In this document: one piece after another, positions 35,885-61,362 of the stretch | Layout: every line of letters starts with the position of its first letter | Position numbering within the stretch: position 1 is the stretch's first letter | Source of the DNA: a virus | Lineage: Duplodnaviria > Caudoviricetes | DNA length: 64,000 bases | Direction: 5' to 3' (one strand) | Virus record (IMG/VR): IMGVR_UViG_3300021400_000138 | Location: 121,391 to 185,390 of that record | Translations under genes and position numbers: made by a program | The notes under the pieces: generated by a model | The model's database searches: none | The model's input: the letters and a program-made list of their open reading frames with translations, nothing else | Told to the model about the DNA's origin: nothing

Positions 35885-36910
35885 TTAAATAAAAGCCTCA
35901 TCTGATTCATCCGTCAAATCAGAACGAATAATGTAGCTTGATTCGGTTGTTTCTACCGATTCATGACCAAGTAACTTCTAAGCAACTTTCGGTGATTTAT
36001 GTTCATAAACAACAAGATTTGTTGCCTTACTTTCACGCCAAATATGAGACATAACACGACGGCCAACAAGTTTTGTCAATAATCCAGAACACCATTCGTT
36101 GAACGTTGTCTCACTTACTTGTTTCACATTTCCATCTTTATCTTTGGTAACAAACAAATATGGACAATCATCATCACCACGAACTTCCAACCATTTCTTT
36201 ATTGCATCCATAGCGTCTTGATCAAATTTAAGGCGACGTCGCTTGCCCTCTTTGCTGGGTCCCTTCGCTCGAAGAATATGTGTTGTATAAAACCTAGATA
36301 TTCCGATTTGTTCTTTTCCATCTTCATCAATATATTTAATCTCTTTAACAATAGGTTCATAATCTGCAATTTCTTTAAGAAGTTGTCTTGTCTCCGCTCT
36401 ACGAGCAGCCGAGCTATATGAGAATTTTACATAAGCAAGAATTTGCCATTTTTCAAGCTCTTCAAGTTTATTGTAAAGATCTTCCATTTCTTCTGGAGTA
36501 AGAGGATGTTTTTCATGCACAAACCCTGTTTTTACAACTTTCATACTTGAGGTAACAAAACTTCTGAAAGTCGGATATTCATCTTCATAGTACTCTACTA
36601 TATAATTGCAAAAAGAACTAATAACAGATTTTTTCATTTTTATTGCAGACTCTGAAAGACCACGATTTGTAAGCCAATTAAGATATCTTACAAATTCTTT
36701 TTTCTTTATATCAACACAATCTTTATCCTTTAATGATTCATGTACCCACCAGAAAAATATTCGAAGAGCAGAAGAGTACTGAATTTTTGATTGATCACTA
36801 AGTTCAATTTTGTATTCTAAAAATTCCTAGACCATATTACGGTTAAATTCATTTACTTGCTGCCACATCTCATCAGTTATTTCATCAGAGTGTTTCGCAA
36901 CTTGACCCAT
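35885..36910 (-). CDS. Tyrosine recombinase/integrase family protein, 341 aa; TAG=Gln
   Basis: SAARRAE...HIWRES...VA(Q)KLLGHESVETTESSY gives the R-H-R-H-Y catalytic set. ATG at 36910, TAA at 35885. Confidence 0.85.
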
Positions 36911-36930
36911 TGTCATCACCTACCTTTATT

Positions 36931-38294: not shown

Positions 38295-38380
38295 CTCCTG
38301 ATATAGTTAAACGCAATGCGGAGAAGCCAGGAGGAGCTTCTCCATATAAGAGTGATCAAGTTCTTATATTTATTGCGTTT
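38295..38380 (-). promoter_or_regulatory. Structured leader (three-way junction plus pseudoknot) upstream of an HNH gene
   Basis: Stems AAACGCAAT/ATTGCGTTT, TATAAGA/TCTTATA and GGAGAAGC/GCTTCTCC. Loop CTCCTG is complementary to a downstream CAGGAG. Confidence 0.5.
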
Positions 38381-38382
38381 GC

Positions 38383-38475
38383 TAAGCCCGCTGGAATTCG
38401 AATCCAGATTACCTCCTTCAGAGGGATATCACGCTTTTAGAGAGCGGTGCACTAGTCCAGTTGTGCTACGGGCCT
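38383..38475 (-). tRNA. Amber suppressor tRNA, anticodon CUA (probably Gln-inserting), 93 nt with long extra arm
   Basis: AGGCCCG TA GCAC AACTGGACTA GTGC A CCGCT CT-CTA-AA AGCGT GATATCCCTCTGAAGGAGGTAAT CTGGA TTCGAAT TCCAG CGGGCTT A. Anticodon at 38438-38440. Confidence 0.85.
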
Positions 38476-38537
38476 ATATATTGGACAGTAAAAAATACCG
38501 TCCTTAAAATAAAAAGAGCAGATAATCCACTCTCAAA

Positions 38538-38930
38538 TTACAAATAATGTTTATAAAAATAATCGTTTATCATATCTACTACTTTATCCTCAAGATGATA
38601 TTCTTTAATCCTTTTGTTTATATCAGCATATAAATATTTATCCGCCACAGGATGATTTAACACATCGCCCATAACACGAAAATCATGTTCCGCACAATCA
38701 ACAAATGACTCATCATCTGTATGATAAAATACGACGTTTGTAGTAGCCTTATATTCTTCAGATTCATACTCACAAATAAGATATGTGTCATCCGGATAGC
38801 TGTTTTCTTTAAGCCAGGATATCAAACTATCATCTGGTTCGTTTTCGAATTCTAAGATCATATCTGCTTCAACTCTATATACAGCACCACAAATAGATAA
38901 CACTTTGTTGATCTTATACATCTTAAACAT
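38538..38930 (-). CDS. Hypothetical protein, 130 aa
   Basis: RBS AAGGAG before ATG at 38930 (MFKMYKINK), within ORF 38538-39038. Confidence 0.6.
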   Translation of the reverse strand: MFKMYKINKVLSICGAVYRVEADMILEFENEPDDSLISWLKENSYPDDTYLICEYESEEYKATTNVVFYHTDDESFVDCAEHDFRVMGDVLNHPVADKYLYADINKRIKEYHLEDKVVDMINDYFYKHYL

Positions 38931-39102
38931 AAGATTTCTCCTTTTCATCAAAATAAAAAAGAGCGGGACATCAATCCTGCTCAACAAAATAATCGTAAAA
39001 AATGGGGTCGACCTACCACCGCAAAAGTAGCAGATCAACCCCGTGAATAACGATGGTGAACCACCGCTATTGAGCTTTTCTTAAATAATCTACTTTCACT
39101 AA

Positions 39103-39567: not shown

Positions 39568-40743
39568 TTATATATAAGCTTTAACTCTCATCTGAGTAAA
39601 GCGTGATTTTCTTAATTCACTAGGTTTATATTTGTCGAATATCCAAGTACCGAGTTTTGAATTTTCTGCATCGGCGTGAGTGAGGATATTACCAGATAGA
39701 TATGATTCTATGGAAAATGGAATGTTGATGCCTAGTCCACGGCGTTTGGCGTTGATGTATTCTTCAAGCTGTTCAGGTGTGTTATTATGTGTGCCGTAAA
39801 GATTATGAAACGAATCAACGATCTTAGCCTGATGGTGCAAATCACACAAACATATTCCATTTTTAACGTCTAATCTTAAATCTTTATATTTAGAAAATGG
39901 ATTAATATGATGTACTTCTAAATTTTCCCGACTGCCACAGCACTGGCATGTATAAAAGTCTTTTTTCAATACATTGTTCCTCCAATCCGCATATTCTGTC
40001 GAATTTCTACACCTTTGATTTTCTTTTAAGATACCACCACGCCACTGCGGAGATTCTTCACCTCTCGGTATATTTGCAATCGCTTTTTCTTTTGCACATT
40101 CTGGACAAATATATTTTTCCTTATTTATATCTAAAATACGTTTTTTATAATCGTCATGAATTCCATTCTCACATTTAAACCAAACATATTCTTTGCTTCC
40201 ATATGTTTTGTCGAACGGACCAAACAAATTTTTATCCGACCACACCTCAACATATTCTGGATGTTTATAGCCAAATGAATTTGTTAGACATACACGTTGT
40301 CCAGTACAATATGGACATTTGTCATGACCATTAGAATAATTATTTGCAGCGACATCAAAATCATCATGGTTAGGATTGTCTAAACATCTCAACCATATTT
40401 TATTTTTACTAGATCTATCTATGTCAAAATATGACTTTTCATTCTTATCAGACCAAAGCATATTTAAATAATCTAATCCATATTTATCAATTATATATTG
40501 ACCTATAGAATTACAGGCATGACAAATACAATAATATCCTCTTTTCTTATACCCTTTAACAACGTTTCCAATACAAATCATTCTTGATTCATGTAATTCA
40601 TCTGGACATTTAAGCCAATATTTTTTATTTGTAGTCGAACTAACTAAATTTGGGGAAATATCATTTAACTTATAGTCCCACAGTTCTAATAATTCATTAT
40701 AGTTGTTATCTATACAAAACTGTTCAAAAGAATAATTAATCAT
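39568..40743 (-). CDS. Free-standing HNH homing endonuclease with repeated Zn-ribbon (WSDKN...W.KC) domains
   Basis: CQCCGSRENLEVHHI...NGICLCDLHH...FHNLYG. RBS AAGGAG before ATG at 40743. No TAG. Confidence 0.85.
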   Translation of the reverse strand: MINYSFEQFCIDNNYNELLELWDYKLNDISPNLVSSTTNKKYWLKCPDELHESRMICIGNVVKGYKKRGYYCICHACNSIGQYIIDKYGLDYLNMLWSDKNEKSYFDIDRSSKNKIWLRCLDNPNHDDFDVAANNYSNGHDKCPYCTGQRVCLTNSFGYKHPEYVEVWSDKNLFGPFDKTYGSKEYVWFKCENGIHDDYKKRILDINKEKYICPECAKEKAIANIPRGEESPQWRGGILKENQRCRNSTEYADWRNNVLKKDFYTCQCCGSRENLEVHHINPFSKYKDLRLDVKNGICLCDLHHQAKIVDSFHNLYGTHNNTPEQLEEYINAKRRGLGINIPFSIESYLSGNILTHADAENSKLGTWIFDKYKPSELRKSRFTQMRVKAYI

Positions 40744-40768
40744 GTTCCATTTCTCCTTATAATGAAAT

Positions 40769-40853
40769 CTCCTAAATTTAAACAAAATAAAAGAGCGGGG
40801 TAGGAGTTCCCCCGCTCTTGTCAGTTAGTTCATGACGCTAACCTATTTATTTT
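40769..40853 (-). promoter_or_regulatory. Structured leader with the same architecture as 38295-38380
   Basis: Stems AAAATAAA/TTTATTTT, GTTAG/CTAAC and AAGAGCGGGG/CCCCGCTCTT. Loop CTCCTA is complementary to a downstream TAGGAG. Confidence 0.5.
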
Positions 40854-40919: not shown

Positions 40920-42548
40920 TTAAGCAGCAGCAACACCGCTGATAACAAGGTCTTCTTCTGGATACTTATAATTTAAAATAATAACTTATTTTAAATCTTC
41001 GTTCATACAAAGACGCTACTCTTTGCACAGTTCTCTAACGAACTTCTTATACTTTCATATAAGCACAGACTATATCTTATCCATACCGTATTACTACGGG
41101 TTAGGCGAAACCACTTCGGCTGTCAATCGCTTACAGCCTACTCCTCTCAAGAAGGATAGTCGTTGAACCTTATTCTATTCGAATCTTGGCTGCTGATTTC
41201 CTATTGTCTAATCGGCACTTAGGATTTAACCATATACCATACAATAGATTTTTTCTGCTTTCGCAACATTCGCGTTTACACATATTTCATTGTTACGCTG
41301 TAGTTCTATTGTCTTTAAGGATTTCCAGCAATTCAGTTTCTTTATTCAGTGAAATAATCACTATCACATACAAGTTTCCCTATATGCTTACCATCCAAAT
41401 TTAAATTGTCAAAAAATATAGCAATTTAAAGCGAATTATTCGATAAATGTAATAGAGCGACTGTGTGCCAGCACAATAATCCACGTTCAGATTACCAGAG
41501 AAATCGACCTCTTGTGTCTCTGCATCCAGAGAAATAGTCATAGAGGGATCGGCGGCAAATCTCGGAATTACTACGTAGCAAGGTTTAAGATCGTTATTAC
41601 ACGGATCACCATAAGCACAGAAAAGTGTAAGCTTAACAAGACCCGGAAGATCTTTAGTAGTGTTGGAGAGCATAGCCCCAGAAACAACATCACGTTCATA
41701 CTTTACAAGATACTGAATAGGCTGATCTTCGCCAGCTGCAGGAGCAGTAAAGACAGCGTTAGAACCAGTACCAGTTACAAGTGCCGCTGAATCTGCTGCA
41801 CTAAGAGCAGGAGCATTTGCTCCATTACCATAAAGGCCAATTACACGAAGAGTACCTGTCTTAAGATCAGGAATCTGAATAGCCTTTCCAGCTTCAACAA
41901 TATAAATCTTCGGCATCTGAATAGCGGCAGAAGCAGAAGCATATGTAATTTCTTTACCAGACTGAGCATTAAGAGCTGCTGGATGGAGAAGTGCGTTTGT
42001 AGCGGTAAAGGTACCAGTTTTTGTTCTATAACTTGTACGGATTACATTACCCTTTTTATCAACAATATCGCTAGAATCAGCACTAATTTCAATGGATGCA
42101 CCAGACAGCTGATCAAGAGCATATTTCAGATTGTCATTGTCATCCTGAGCTACACCATAAAGTATTTCCTTTCATACCCTGACTTTCGTCATATTTAATA
42201 GGGAATAGCCTATATCTTCACCCTATACTAATAGGGGGTTGGCGCTTCGATTTAAGAGATTTTCACTCACTGAGAATTTCACTCAGCCCTACTCCTGTTG
42301 TGGAATTTCACCACTTAAAGGATAGGCGTTTAACGTTACTGCGAAACAGTTTTCGCACAGGATTGCCATATTACTGGTGTATGTAACTTAGGTGTTCCCT
42401 GTTAGCCAATTTACTAATTATCATTTCCTATAATTCCTAAACGTTAAATTGACACCCTAGATTTCTAGGTTCACCAACTATCGACATACGTTACCGTATG
42501 AAGCGACCAAAATTAATCGATGTAATGATTACCCAATTTAAAAGCCAT
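40920..42548 (-). CDS. Major tail (tube) protein, 267 aa, split by two group I introns
   Basis: Exons 42548-42516, 42168-41443 and 40964-40920. MAFKLGNHYID|EILYGVAQ...LYYIY|YPEEDLVISGVAAA. RBS AAGGAGG. Follows the neck genes. No TAG. Confidence 0.8.
40965..41442 (-). mobile_element. Group I intron (major tail intron 2), 478 nt
   Basis: R element GGTTCAACGACTATC, S element TAAGATATAGTCTG. Exon ends in U, intron ends in G, frame restored. Confidence 0.85.
42169..42515 (-). mobile_element. Group I intron (major tail intron 1), 347 nt
   Basis: P1 CGAU|/GUCG, P7 GCCTA/TAGGC, ends GAAAG, frame restored. Confidence 0.9.
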
Positions 42549-44113: not shown

Positions 44114-46282
44114 TTATAATGCGATAATTTCAATTTGAAGGCTTGCGACCGCATCCTTCGAAGTGTTGGTTACTGTTAGTATTTTGCCTATATAAGAATC
44201 ATCACCCAGGAATTTAACTTTTACCTTATTTCCATCTGGAATTAGGGTAAGTAATTCCGTATCAACTGGATCGCCATCTATAAAGAATGTCCAATCTCCG
44301 ACTGGATAATCCTCTACAACTTCGTTATCCTCATTATAATAGGTGACGGTGAATGTTTTGGCTGAGCCACCAATCTTGAACTGCGGTTTTCCGCTGCATG
44401 TGATTGTTGATGTTACAGTAGAAGAGGAGGTGGGTTGATCTTCATCTGGAACTGGTATACCTGGAACAGGTTCCACTTCACTTTCTTTCCAATCTGCCCA
44501 CCAGGCAACCACATTACCGTATTCATCATAATCAGCTTTAAGCGTATGTTGATTAGCAAGGTCTTGAGCGCACGTATATATTGCGATACCCTTTGAATTT
44601 GATCGGTTAATTTTACTGATCTACCAAACTCGTGGTTCTGTTAATACATGTGCGTCAATCACTAAATATGTGTTGTAGTATAAATGTTCGGTATCACGAT
44701 TAAGTGGAAGACAAAACTGGGTCTGATCTTCCGGTTGCTAGAATTTATAATCTAACCATAGCAAAATATGTTACTAACTCATACTAAGTAGAGGTGGTCA
44801 TTTCTGCCACCTTCTGCAATTTTATAATTGTGGGATATTTTTGCAGATCAGAATAAATCATCGCCTTTTCAGGCGGACAGCGTATAAATATGTGTTACCA
44901 CATATAAAATATATTCGTTAAGGATTTTTGACAAAAAAATAAAGCCCTTACGGTTTAACATAAGAGCTTTCATAAATAAACATAGGCTGGGTGACATTCC
45001 AGCATCTCCAATATAGGTGACGGATGCCTGTTCCGTCCGCAGATGTTTATTATTCATTAGAATTATTATTTGTTAATATATTTGTTTTTACAAATTCAAC
45101 AAATTGTTTTAGAATATCAACTAGATCTTTTTGATCAAGTTCCCCAATTTTAAAAATAAAATCACTTTCTCTTAAATATTCAAATTTTGAAGTCCTTGCT
45201 GTCGATGCTAAATGTAATCCAGCATCACTCCAGTGAATAATTGGAGTATCAAAAGAATCATCGATACGAACTTCATGTTTTGTTATTTTTACTGCAATAA
45301 CCCATGGTTCCATTTCATCGATTACAACAACTGGCCTATTCGTGAATTTATCTTTATTCTCTTCCAAAAGAAAACTTGCAAACCAAACTTCACCCGTTTT
45401 AAACTTCAATATATTTCTCCTTCAATTTATTAAATAGATCATCCCATTCAGTTTCCTGAAGCCATGGATCATCTTTTGATAATGCAATAGAATAGTCATC
45501 ATGAGAATGCCCTAACACAGGGGCATATATCTCATTACGATGATTTCGTATAAAATCTAAATATTCCTCCATAAAGAACACCTCACATTTTATTATTTAT
45601 ATTAACATATATGAAATTAATTGTCAATATTTTTGTCAAATCTTATCCTCGGGATTGTCCTTCCCACAGGAGTTTTCCCGATAAAAGCTGTCTTATAATT
45701 ATATGTTTCCATATAACACGGCCTATGTTGACCGGAATTATAACTATTCTAACTTCTGCTTACACCAGGGAACTCATAATATTTGCCATTCTTAATCCAA
45801 CGATAAATATCATCACATCTAAGAACCTCCCAAGTCGGAAATTGATTCTCATCCCTGTCAGCAGTAGCAACCACCAACCAGCGTCTATATATGTCATCTT
45901 CTCCCTTTATCCATACATAAAGACCAACGGGATATCTGGCATTATAACGCCTACCAAACATTTCATCATAATAATCTACTTCACACTTATGACCTGGACG
46001 AAACTATATATGCATAGTGACTTCGTCTTTCTAAAACGTCTTCTTGCTATGAGCAATAAACTTGATATCAATCGGGATAGGATTATGATCGGTTTCAGGA
46101 TTAAATCCTTCCAATCTCAATCTATTTTCCGGAGTTGTATGATAATAGTCAAAGAAATATCCAACCTAATACTGAACGTCCTATGTAAACGTAGCGTTCA
46201 TGATTACGTCACTCTGAATCTTCCTAGCCCTTCCAGGAATCTGCGCCTCATGCATATTCTTAAAATCACTGAAGGTAATCAT
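44114..46282 (-). CDS. Putative head completion/closure protein, 399 aa, split by a group I intron; TAG=Gln
   Basis: Exons 46282-45731 and 44761-44114. GVSRS(Q)NSYNSG|LWLDYKF. C-terminal Ig-like segment. Lies among the neck genes. Confidence 0.7.
44933..44970 (-). terminator. Intrinsic terminator of the intron-borne TA operon
   Basis: AAAGCTCTTATG-TTAAAC-CGTAAGGGCTTT followed by ATTTTTTT. Confidence 0.7.
45050..45409 (-). CDS. mazF: PemK/MazF-family endoribonuclease toxin
   Basis: GEVWFASF...NRPVVVI...AVKIT...HWSDAGL..STARTSK...KIGELDQKD. TTG start overlaps the antitoxin 3' end. Confidence 0.8.
   Translation of the reverse strand: MKFKTGEVWFASFLLEENKDKFTNRPVVVIDEMEPWVIAVKITKHEVRIDDSFDTPIIHWSDAGLHLASTARTSKFEYLRESDFIFKIGELDQKDLVDILKQFVEFVKTNILTNNNSNE
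45399..45572 (-). CDS. Putative antitoxin, 57 aa, acidic
   Basis: Small gene upstream of and overlapping the toxin (LSKDDPWLQETEWDDLF). RBS GAGGTG. Confidence 0.65.
   Translation of the reverse strand: MEEYLDFIRNHRNEIYAPVLGHSHDDYSIALSKDDPWLQETEWDDLFNKLKEKYIEV
45599..45627 (-). promoter_or_regulatory. Sigma-A-type promoter for the TA operon
   Basis: TTGACA-N17-TAATAT with TG extension. Palindrome CATATATG in the spacer. Confidence 0.7.
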
Positions 46283-61203: not shown

Positions 61204-61289
61204 ATATTTCTCCTTTTCATCATACAAAAAGAGCAGAAGAGTACCGAAATACTCCCCCGCTCTACGGGGAACACATATTCCCATCCAAG

Positions 61290-61362
61290 TCGAATATGTA
61301 CGATTTGAACGTCTCCCCAACATCCCAAATGTCGTGTGCTACCAGATTACACCACATACTCG
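61290..61362 (-). tRNA. tRNA-Pro(UGG) with atypical acceptor/T stems
   Basis: CGAGTATG TG GTGT AATCTGGTA GCAC A CGACA TT-TGG-GA TGTTG GGGA GACG TTCAAAT CGTA CATATTCG A. Confidence 0.7.

Follow-up and report, generated by a model that had tools for sequence, protein, structure and literature searches.

The locus described here raises the question of how a suppressor transfer RNA (tRNA) that is encoded by a phage and carries the amber anticodon CUA could be charged with the amino acid that the phage gives to UAG. The gene lies on the minus strand, at positions 38383-38475, of a stretch of 64,000 nucleotides (nt), hereafter the window, which corresponds to positions 121,391 to 185,390 of the virus record IMGVR_UViG_3300021400_000138. 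Between its normal anticodon arm (arm 1) and its T arm, the tRNA has an additional arm (arm 2) whose loop, CUCUGAA, contains the glutamine anticodon CUG; the letters and coordinates quoted for it in an initial annotation of the window are all correct, on the minus strand. The charging of suppressor tRNAs in recoded phages is presented as an open question in one preprint (Borges 2021). We compared this tRNA with its relatives, and the comparison points, with a probability that we put at about 60%, to arm 2 being an identity arm read by the host glutaminyl- or tryptophanyl-tRNA synthetase (GlnRS or TrpRS) while arm 1 decodes.

The window, whose G+C content is 35%, is the final 64 kb of a complete 185,390-bp crAss-like phage record that has direct terminal repeats and agrees in size and intron content with the large “Zeta” crAss-like phages (Yutin 2021, PMC7886860). 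When TAG is read as sense, open reading frames (ORFs) of 4354 amino acids (aa) with 32 TAG and of 2313 aa with 30 TAG appear, nearly all coding being on the minus strand. Besides the portal gene (phrog_2739), the window has a group I intron and further families for which PHROGs gives no known function. In the portal, a 92%-identical relative has CAG or CAA at seven of the eight window TAG columns, and most TAG columns are Gln across five relatives. A genome-wide tblastn of TAG-containing ORFs against all the loci that we collected (numbered with an L below) gave Q as the majority residue at 25 of 56 covered TAG positions. These alignments indicate that TAG is Gln in this phage, as the initial annotation had it. 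We searched the phage genome for GlnRS and for glutamyl-tRNA synthetase (GluRS) and found neither encoded there, so a host enzyme must charge the tRNA.

The gene is 93 nt long and matches the Rfam tRNA family RF00005 with 46.1 bits (E 4.8e-9, model positions 1-71), although a scan of the whole window at the gathering threshold of that family (29 bits) missed it. ARAGORN also calls a CUA tRNA there, at 38381-38476(-), and it is the sole CUA tRNA of the complete 185,390-bp genome. Its 5' part reads AGGCCCG UA GCAC AACUGGACUA GUGC A CCGCU CUCUAAA AGCGU G and its 3' part AUAUCC CUCUGAA GGAGGU AAU CUGGA UUCGAAU UCCAG CGGGCUU A. The 7 nt of the arm-1 loop, CUCUAAA (38436-38442), place CUA at 34-36 between U33 and a purine (position 37); with the Rfam match and the TAG-recoded genome, this bears out the earlier call of an amber suppressor. 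In the Rfam alignment, arm 2 is a 20-nt insertion in the variable region, which amounts to 23 nt, next to a D loop of 10 nt.

Taken as a single sequence, arm 2 is not convincing. Its free-energy minimum is a 5-bp stem CCUCU/GGAGG with a GAA triloop, and its z score of -0.84 is not above shuffled sequences. The initial annotation had warned that the resemblance to an anticodon arm could be due to chance; this is fair for the window copy alone, but with homologs the resemblance goes far beyond chance. An exact scan for the arm returned 17 viral contigs; with the arm the same to the letter, these copies diverge widely in their acceptor, D and T stems. We then used scans that ignore the variable region, one for the anticodon arm in viral contigs (75 loci) and one for the anticodon loop and T arm in metagenomes (120 loci). 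Parsing gave 139 distinct CUA tRNAs, 96 of them with distinct long variable regions, of which 75 fall in one dual-arm family, at least two pairs closing the loop being required for admission.

Across these 75 distinct arms the loop is N-U-(C/U)-U-G-A-N and its triplet is always CUG or UUG, which answers the call of the initial annotation for a check of the CTCTGAA loop in homologs. Position by position, 32 is C in 53 arms, U in 20 and G in 2; 33 is U in 71 and C in 4; 34 is C in 61 and U in 14; 35 is U and 36 is G in all 75; 37 is A in 69, C in 5 and U in 1; and 38 is any base. The stems closing the loop are swapped wholesale (UCC/GGA, UGC/GCA, CAC/GUG, GCC/GGC, GGC/GCC, AUC/GAU, CACGG/CCGUG, CCAGG/CCUGG, CUACGG/CCGUAG). 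For the three closing pairs of the 7-nt loop, on the 60 ungapped arms, covariation is 0.518 against 0.165 ± 0.023 for column shuffles (0/500), and slid controls stay at or below 0.201; the triloop model gives 0.192 against 0.168 for its shuffles. Admission itself needed at least two closing pairs, so only the third is free of that selection: it is paired in 49 of the 60 arms (UA 21, CG 14, GC 10, AU 4). The sequences thus indicate selection on arm 2 to form a hairpin with a 7-nt loop. The triloop is rejected as the conserved structure on this family covariation; it may still form in the window copy, and preference for it is peculiar to the commonest subfamily, to which that copy belongs. The second arm of the initial annotation therefore stands as regards its 7-nt loop with CUG, supported by covariation, and falls as regards its 6-pair stem, the outer part being unconserved; the conserved inner stem of the window arm is UCC/GGA.

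The placement of arm 2 is as regular as its loop. From the end of its loop to the T stem there are 9 nt in 60 of the 75 arms and 8-10 nt in all of them, about what a 4-nt variable loop after a normal anticodon arm would give. Arms 1 and 2 are 3 to 11 nt apart, and five members (L178, L160, L144, L155, L231) have two full arms of 5-6 bp joined by a six-base linker (AGGAAG, AGGAAU or CAGAGC). When arm 1 is deleted in silico, ARAGORN calls a tRNA-Gln(CUG/UUG) in 63 of the 75 members, including the window copy, so the molecule holds two overlapping cloverleaves. We define a dual-arm suppressor by a class I body, a stop anticodon in arm 1 and, in arm 2, a 7-nt loop with a sense anticodon 8-10 nt before the T stem; the window copy, with its UCC/GGA stem, its CUCUGAA loop and 9 nt to the T stem, belongs here. 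In DNA runs from other ruminant gut samples only the two-arm core is in common with it, the tRNA bodies being different. An exact scan with the window copy's own anticodon arm returned only 4 chance matches, without tRNAs, and BLASTN of the tRNA region against GenBank phages gave no match. Retrieval through the portal yielded 5, then 11 loci, too few for a clade-wide survey.

A natural experiment on the meaning of the arm-2 triplet is provided by two loci, L114 and L166, whose CUA tRNAs have the same architecture and an arm-2 loop GUCCAAA, that is, U-CCA-A, with the anticodon of tRNA-Trp; in both loci an ordinary tRNA-Trp(CCA) gene precedes the suppressor by 8-9 nt. L114 (tRNA at L114:7800-7892) belongs to IMGVR_UViG_3300028805_000058 (G006; L246-L253), a 146-kb crAss-like genome that is 93% complete and TAG-recoded, with an ORF of 2803 aa containing 22 TAG. 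Its single CUA tRNA is the one with CCA in arm 2, and a search of this genome for a TrpRS found none. Its endolysin has five TAG, one of them in a variable linker; at the columns of the other four, database homologs have W in 118/120, 120/120, 74/120 (with F in 42) and 112/120 cases. Of the 24 TAG positions covered elsewhere in the genome, 10 have W as their majority residue, and Q occurs at none of them. By these alignments G006 reads TAG as Trp, not Gln, an assignment (UAG = Trp, code 32) that one recoded-phage paper calls “rarely reported”. A motif scan for CTCTAAA..TCCAAA..GGTTCRA returned, beyond the known L114, only chance matches or ordinary tRNA-Trp. A further set is made of opal suppressors: two-arm tRNAs with UCA in arm 1 and CCA in arm 2 are found at L285, L289, L305, L320 and L326, with intron-split copies at L283, L297, L313 and L316, and at the loci bearing them in-frame TGA aligns with W, the majority at 26 of 51 positions. 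Arm 1 with CUA and arm 2 with CUG or UUG thus go with TAG = Gln, CUA and CCA with TAG = Trp, and UCA and CCA with TGA = Trp; in all three combinations examined, the arm-2 triplet is the sense anticodon for the amino acid that the stop codon specifies. Among the functions that the initial annotation offered for arm 2 (synthetase recognition, a decoy for anticodon nucleases, or a switch of decoding by removal or refolding), this tracking of the assigned amino acid favours synthetase recognition.

The body of the tRNA points in the same direction. Among 96 distinct tRNAs of the family, the 1:72 pair is U:A in 33, U.U in 25, A.C in 18 and A:U in 11, never G:C, and it is weak or mismatched in 94; G:C is found at 2:71 in 80 and C:G at 3:70 in 74, and 79 have G at position 73, against 12 with A and 5 with U. 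The acceptor register is fixed at 7 bp by the 3' CCA that many relatives encode. The extra U(-1):A73 pair of the initial annotation, which ARAGORN draws as optional, is therefore possible but does not fit the register of the CCA-encoding members, while the Arg-like D loop with A20 that it mentioned carries no signal, the D loop varying freely in the family. Genes for tRNA-Gln in these phages have U1:A72 or A1:U72 and G73, with anticodon loops CUUUGAC, CUCUGAA, CUCUGAC and CUUUGAA. The arm-2 loops are identical to these anticodon loops, the window CUCUGAA being the tRNA-Gln(CUG) loop, and the acceptor end of the family would likewise be of the Gln type, matching the phage tRNA-Gln genes. For E. 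coli GlnRS, the identity set comprises a weak 1:72, G2:C71, G3:C70, G10 and G73, with YUG (Y, pyrimidine) at 34-36. Compared with this set, A1:U72, G3:C70 and G10 of the window copy fit, G2.U71 fits in part and A73 does not. As the decoding arm has CUA and YUG is present only in arm 2, the molecule is not an ordinary tRNA-Gln.

The mechanism that we propose would work as follows. Arm 1, in its normal place beside the D arm, would read UAG on the ribosome, while arm 2, in the place of a long variable arm, would present a copy of the tRNA-Gln anticodon loop (U33, CUG, A37). Together with the Gln-type acceptor end (weak 1:72, mostly G73), arm 2 would recruit the host glutamine-charging enzyme and make up for G36, which the enzyme needs and which is missing from the decoding anticodon. 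Charging could be carried out by GlnRS or, in hosts without GlnRS, by a non-discriminating GluRS and GatCAB, and the outcome would be some 250 in-frame TAG codons read as Gln. Anticodon bases are major identity elements for both GlnRS and TrpRS, so a decoder with CUA would be left with reduced Gln identity and with hardly any Trp identity. In E. coli, su+7 (tRNA-Trp with CCA changed to CUA) is charged with Gln, and supE is a Gln suppressor without G36. Contact of the synthetase with arm 2 and the three-dimensional arrangement of the arms are what we infer here. Going one step further, we lean, if only slightly, towards seeing in these molecules a new class of tRNA of stop-recoding phages, in which decoding and amino acid identity would be carried by separate anticodon arms and a swap of arm 2 would reprogram the amino acid, on the strength of the three natural combinations (CUA with YUG for Gln, CUA with CCA for Trp, UCA with CCA for Trp).

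Several points weigh against an identity role for arm 2 and have to be set beside this proposal. The case for TAG = Trp consists of one genome and one short contig, and a CUA tRNA at L178:476-573, in tandem with a two-arm tRNA of the Gln type, has a 5-bp arm 2 with the loop UCUUAAC, neither Gln nor Trp. Many phage CUA tRNAs have no arm 2 and such tRNAs generally insert Gln, so arm 2 is not indispensable. In some subfamilies its stem has only 2-3 bp, and the window copy itself, with A73 and G2.U71, shows the minority acceptor pattern. Over the whole tRNA, the triloop fold is computed at -29.5 kcal/mol against -25.5 kcal/mol for the fold with a 7-nt loop, so CUG can be hidden; arm 2 of the window copy may first have to open from the triloop form. 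Lastly, GlnRS is a class I synthetase, and enzymes of this class come to the tRNA on the face opposite the normal variable arm, so that reading arm 2 would need a rearranged five-way junction or an arm 2 stacked on the D stem. The C27.U43 mismatch atop arm 1, present in 56 of the 96 family members, might permit such a rearrangement, which is speculation on our part.

Other explanations account for part of these observations. Arm 2 could be an ordinary long variable arm, or a docking or protection site for some other partner (a phage protein, a modification or processing enzyme, EF-Tu, the ribosome, a defence against nucleases), its Gln-like loop having nothing to do with aminoacylation. Long variable arms are indeed known recognition handles in Ser, Leu, Tyr and Sec tRNAs, and the preference of the window arm for a triloop hiding CUG would suit this explanation, which nevertheless leaves unexplained why CCA occurs exactly where the stop codon is Trp and why U35 and G36 are invariant, and 34 only C or U, on stems that change freely; the body, moreover, is unlike that of class II tRNAs. 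We hold it unlikely. Another possibility is that both arms decode, two cloverleaves alternating so that UAG is read through arm 1 and CAG through arm 2, the cognate triplet keeping the amino acid the same; this could coexist with an identity role. It would agree with the canonical tRNA-Gln left in 63 of 75 members by removal of arm 1, with the canonical distances of arm 2 from the T stem and of arm 1 from the D stem, with the C27.U43 mismatch, which could loosen the stacking of arm 1, and with an arm-2 triplet that always matches the assigned amino acid. Against it, several of these loci have ordinary tRNA-Gln genes, to which a second reading would add little, and an arm 2 of 2-3 bp is hardly an anticodon stem fit for the ribosome; we know of no precedent and consider dual decoding quite unlikely.

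The origin of the molecule bears on a third explanation, that arm 2 is a functionless leftover: a former anticodon arm, or a hairpin that had been inserted, which stayed on once a new CUA arm had arisen. In G006, suppressor and adjoining tRNA-Trp are clearly paralogs, with one difference per acceptor strand and identical T arms; arm 1 of the suppressor is the Trp anticodon arm except for CCA changed to CUA and one compensated stem pair, and its arm 2 is a 21-nt insertion in the variable loop. The Trp-type suppressor, lying 8-9 nt after its paralog, thus differs from it mainly by this insertion, so arms of this kind do come about through simple insertions. A leftover would, however, be expected to decay, whereas the loop is kept in 75 distinct arms with compensatory stem changes, and copies with diverged stems elsewhere still have the same arm, letter for letter, which makes this explanation very improbable. 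The same comparison does not support the duplication of a tRNA-Gln(CUG) arm followed by a G-to-A change, the origin suggested in the initial annotation: in G006 arm 2 is the insertion and arm 1 the mutated original, and in the window copy the stems CCGCU/AGCGU and AUAUCC/GGAGGU have nothing in common beyond the loop consensus.

There is finally the classical explanation, in which the molecule is a tRNA-Pyl, or a type II suppressor with tRNA-Ser, Leu or Tyr as its source, and would insert its own amino acid at UAG. A variable region of 23 nt and A73 would suit Leu or Tyr, and ARAGORN prints “tRNA-Pyl”, a label that it gives to every CUA tRNA found, including a Ser-like one. Yet it is with Gln that the TAG columns align, and with none of Ser, Leu and Tyr; the 4-bp D stem sets the molecule apart from the Leu, Ser and Tyr tRNAs of the same phages, so that despite its long arm it does not group with class II, in agreement with the initial annotation; and true Leu-, Ser- or Tyr-like CUA tRNAs, which exist in other contigs, look different. 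A tRNA-Pyl has a very short variable loop and a small D loop, at odds with the 23-nt variable region and 10-nt D loop seen here; no search aimed at pyl genes was made. Neither is this a tRNA-Sec, whose acceptor and T helices are 8/5 and whose anticodon is UCA, nor an allo-tRNA, a type with Ser identity: the register is 7/5, an eighth pair, U(-1):A73, being possible in the window copy only. A classical type II or Pyl suppressor is, in our view, close to negligible, and we retain an identity arm as the best account of arm 2.

The nearest known systems each share part of this picture. In E. coli supE and su+7, one anticodon base change makes an amber suppressor, and GlnRS accepts CUA tRNAs with a weak 1:72 and G73, to which arm 1 and the body of the present family are alike. 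Their variable loop, however, has 4-5 nt and part of the synthetase recognition is lost, whereas here a second loop would restore the triplet; su+7 gives Gln, whereas the CCA second loop of G006 goes with Trp. Class II tRNAs (Ser, Leu, bacterial Tyr, Sec) also have a stem-loop between the anticodon and T arms, and it is an identity element for their synthetases, but it is recognised by its shape, length and orientation, and its small loop is unconstrained in sequence; the present loop, of 7 nt, is conserved and of the anticodon type, beside a 4-bp D stem and with Gln or Trp as the amino acid. In viral tRNA-like structures (the valine-accepting one of turnip yellow mosaic virus) and in anticodon mimics of messenger RNAs (PMC6542539), an anticodon-like loop outside decoding attracts a synthetase; those molecules are not translating tRNAs, whereas here the mimic would share the molecule with a working anticodon arm. 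Allo-tRNAs (Mukai 2017, PMC5389517) were likewise mined from metagenomes and have long variable arms and, for some, stop anticodons; the stems described in that paper are 8/4 or 9/3 (acceptor/T), against 7/5 with a Gln-type acceptor end and an anticodon-mimic loop here.

Comparable too are the suppressor tRNAs, tRNA-Sup(CUA), of the code-15 phages (crAss-like, Lak and others; Yutin 2021, PMC7886860; Borges 2021 preprint; Peters 2022, PMC9523058), which likewise are phage-borne, have CUA and go with many in-frame TAG aligned to Gln, in a standard-code host and with no synthetase of the phage's own. These papers treat the suppressors as ordinary tRNAs, leave charging open and describe no second anticodon-like arm. 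A 2025 preprint (PMC12636597) describes a screen of 213 phage suppressor tRNAs, in which 28 of the 29 CUA tRNAs put to the test inserted Gln, and reports charging of phage tRNA(CUA)s with Gln by E. coli and Prevotella GlnRS; it makes no mention of an extra arm and flags tRNAs above 100 nt as of low confidence. Our search of the literature, which was incomplete and leaves room for a prior publication, found no description of a suppressor tRNA with two anticodon arms. On present comparisons we regard this structural variant of suppressor tRNA as new, and it may embody a new principle. If our proposal is true, decoding and identity anticodons would be separate in a natural tRNA for the first time; a second arm keeping the original anticodon would answer the problem of charging by the host and explain TAG = Trp in one phage lineage, while the swap of the arm-2 triplet would be a testable design rule and the molecule a possible chassis for genetic-code expansion. 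For annotation, dual-arm tRNAs of 90-100 nt are easily mislabelled as Pyl or Ser-like, or dropped by length filters.

The features of the gene and of its immediate surroundings are listed below.

Table 1. Position of the dual-arm suppressor tRNA, its parts and the adjacent hairpins in the window
Feature	Positions	Strand	Remarks
Whole tRNA gene	38383..38475	-	Without encoded CCA; A73 in the 7-bp register
Acceptor stem, 5' strand, AGGCCCG	38469..38475	-	Pairs with CGGGCUU at 38384-38390: A1:U72, G2.U71, G3:C70
D arm, GCAC / AACUGGACUA / GUGC	38449..38466	-	4-bp stem, from the Rfam alignment
Arm 1 (decoding), CCGCU-CUCUAAA-AGCGU	38431..38447	-	CUA at 38438-38440; C.U mismatch at 27:43
Arm 2 (proposed identity arm), AUAUCC-CUCUGAA-GGAGGU	38411..38429	-	Loop at 38417-38423, CUG at 38419-38421
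AAU linker, arm 2 to T stem	38408..38410	-	9 nt from the end of loop 2 to the T stem
T arm, CUGGA-UUCGAAU-UCCAG	38391..38407	-	A53:U61 instead of the usual G53:C61; A53:U61 in 2/96 family members
Terminator-like hairpin 3' of the tRNA	38319..38344	-	From a consensus scan only: 10 pairs, then CATTGCGTTT
Terminator-like hairpin between the upstream ORF (38538-39038) and the tRNA	38514..38534	-	From a consensus scan only: 9 pairs, then TTTATTTT

The T arm, called perfect in the initial annotation, is indeed fully paired, with the A53:U61 pair of Table 1. A scan for sigma-70-like promoters found none on the tRNA strand, with a tool that does not include promoters of Bacteroidota or of crAss-like phages. 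In the single RNA run, a metatranscriptome (contigs) of what is probably the source sample, coverage extends over 38641-38827 and leaves the tRNA gene uncovered, which is uninformative on its expression, ends or processing. Two other uses of the GGAGG stretch of arm 2 were considered and rejected: as a Shine-Dalgarno-like element it is unconserved, other arms having GGGG, GCAGG, GUGGG or CCGUG, and the resemblance of CCUCU/GGAGG to the P1 of a group I intron is not general in the family.

Several minor observations concern other tRNAs. An ordinary tRNA-Pro(UGG) lies in the window at 61289-61362(-) (Rfam 40.8 bits), and the rest of the genome has a tRNA-Leu(UAA) and two further Rfam tRNA matches that ARAGORN does not call. 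At L147:1875-1970 there is a 96-nt tRNA-Ile(UAU) with an extra hairpin whose loop has GAUAA, GAU being the ordinary Ile anticodon; it might be the same principle applied to a sense codon, as a single case next to some 25 other UAU tRNAs of normal length. As for the position of suppressors, those of two relatives (L010:3725-3813 and L014:3675-3766) lie 40-90 nt downstream of the portal gene, and that of the present genome is about 18 kb from the portal, among DUF4379/HNH-type genes; from these positions, the suppressor gene seems to change place.

Around the tRNA, the ORF at 35885-36919(-), about 1.5 kb downstream, has two in-frame TAG and matches the tyrosine recombinase (phage integrase) family; one crAss-like phage paper takes the absence of an integrase as a sign of a virulent lifestyle. 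The group I intron of the window (41046-41391(-), Rfam 59 bits) lies between the ORF 41401-41916 and the ORF 39568-40785, which is HNH/DUF4379 endonuclease-like and probably a homing endonuclease. In relatives, a group I intron (L042:468-690, also in L036, L045 and L047) splits the anticodon of arm 1 after CUCU, between U35 and A36; the Intron_gpI match of Rfam covers L042:468-659 (50.5 bits), and arm 2 is never the split loop. The window also contains, at 44979-45047(-), a match of 43.5 bits to skipping-rope RNA (RF02924), a small RNA motif of unknown function, and a further match is found at L047:6612-6679, near the tRNA array of that relative.

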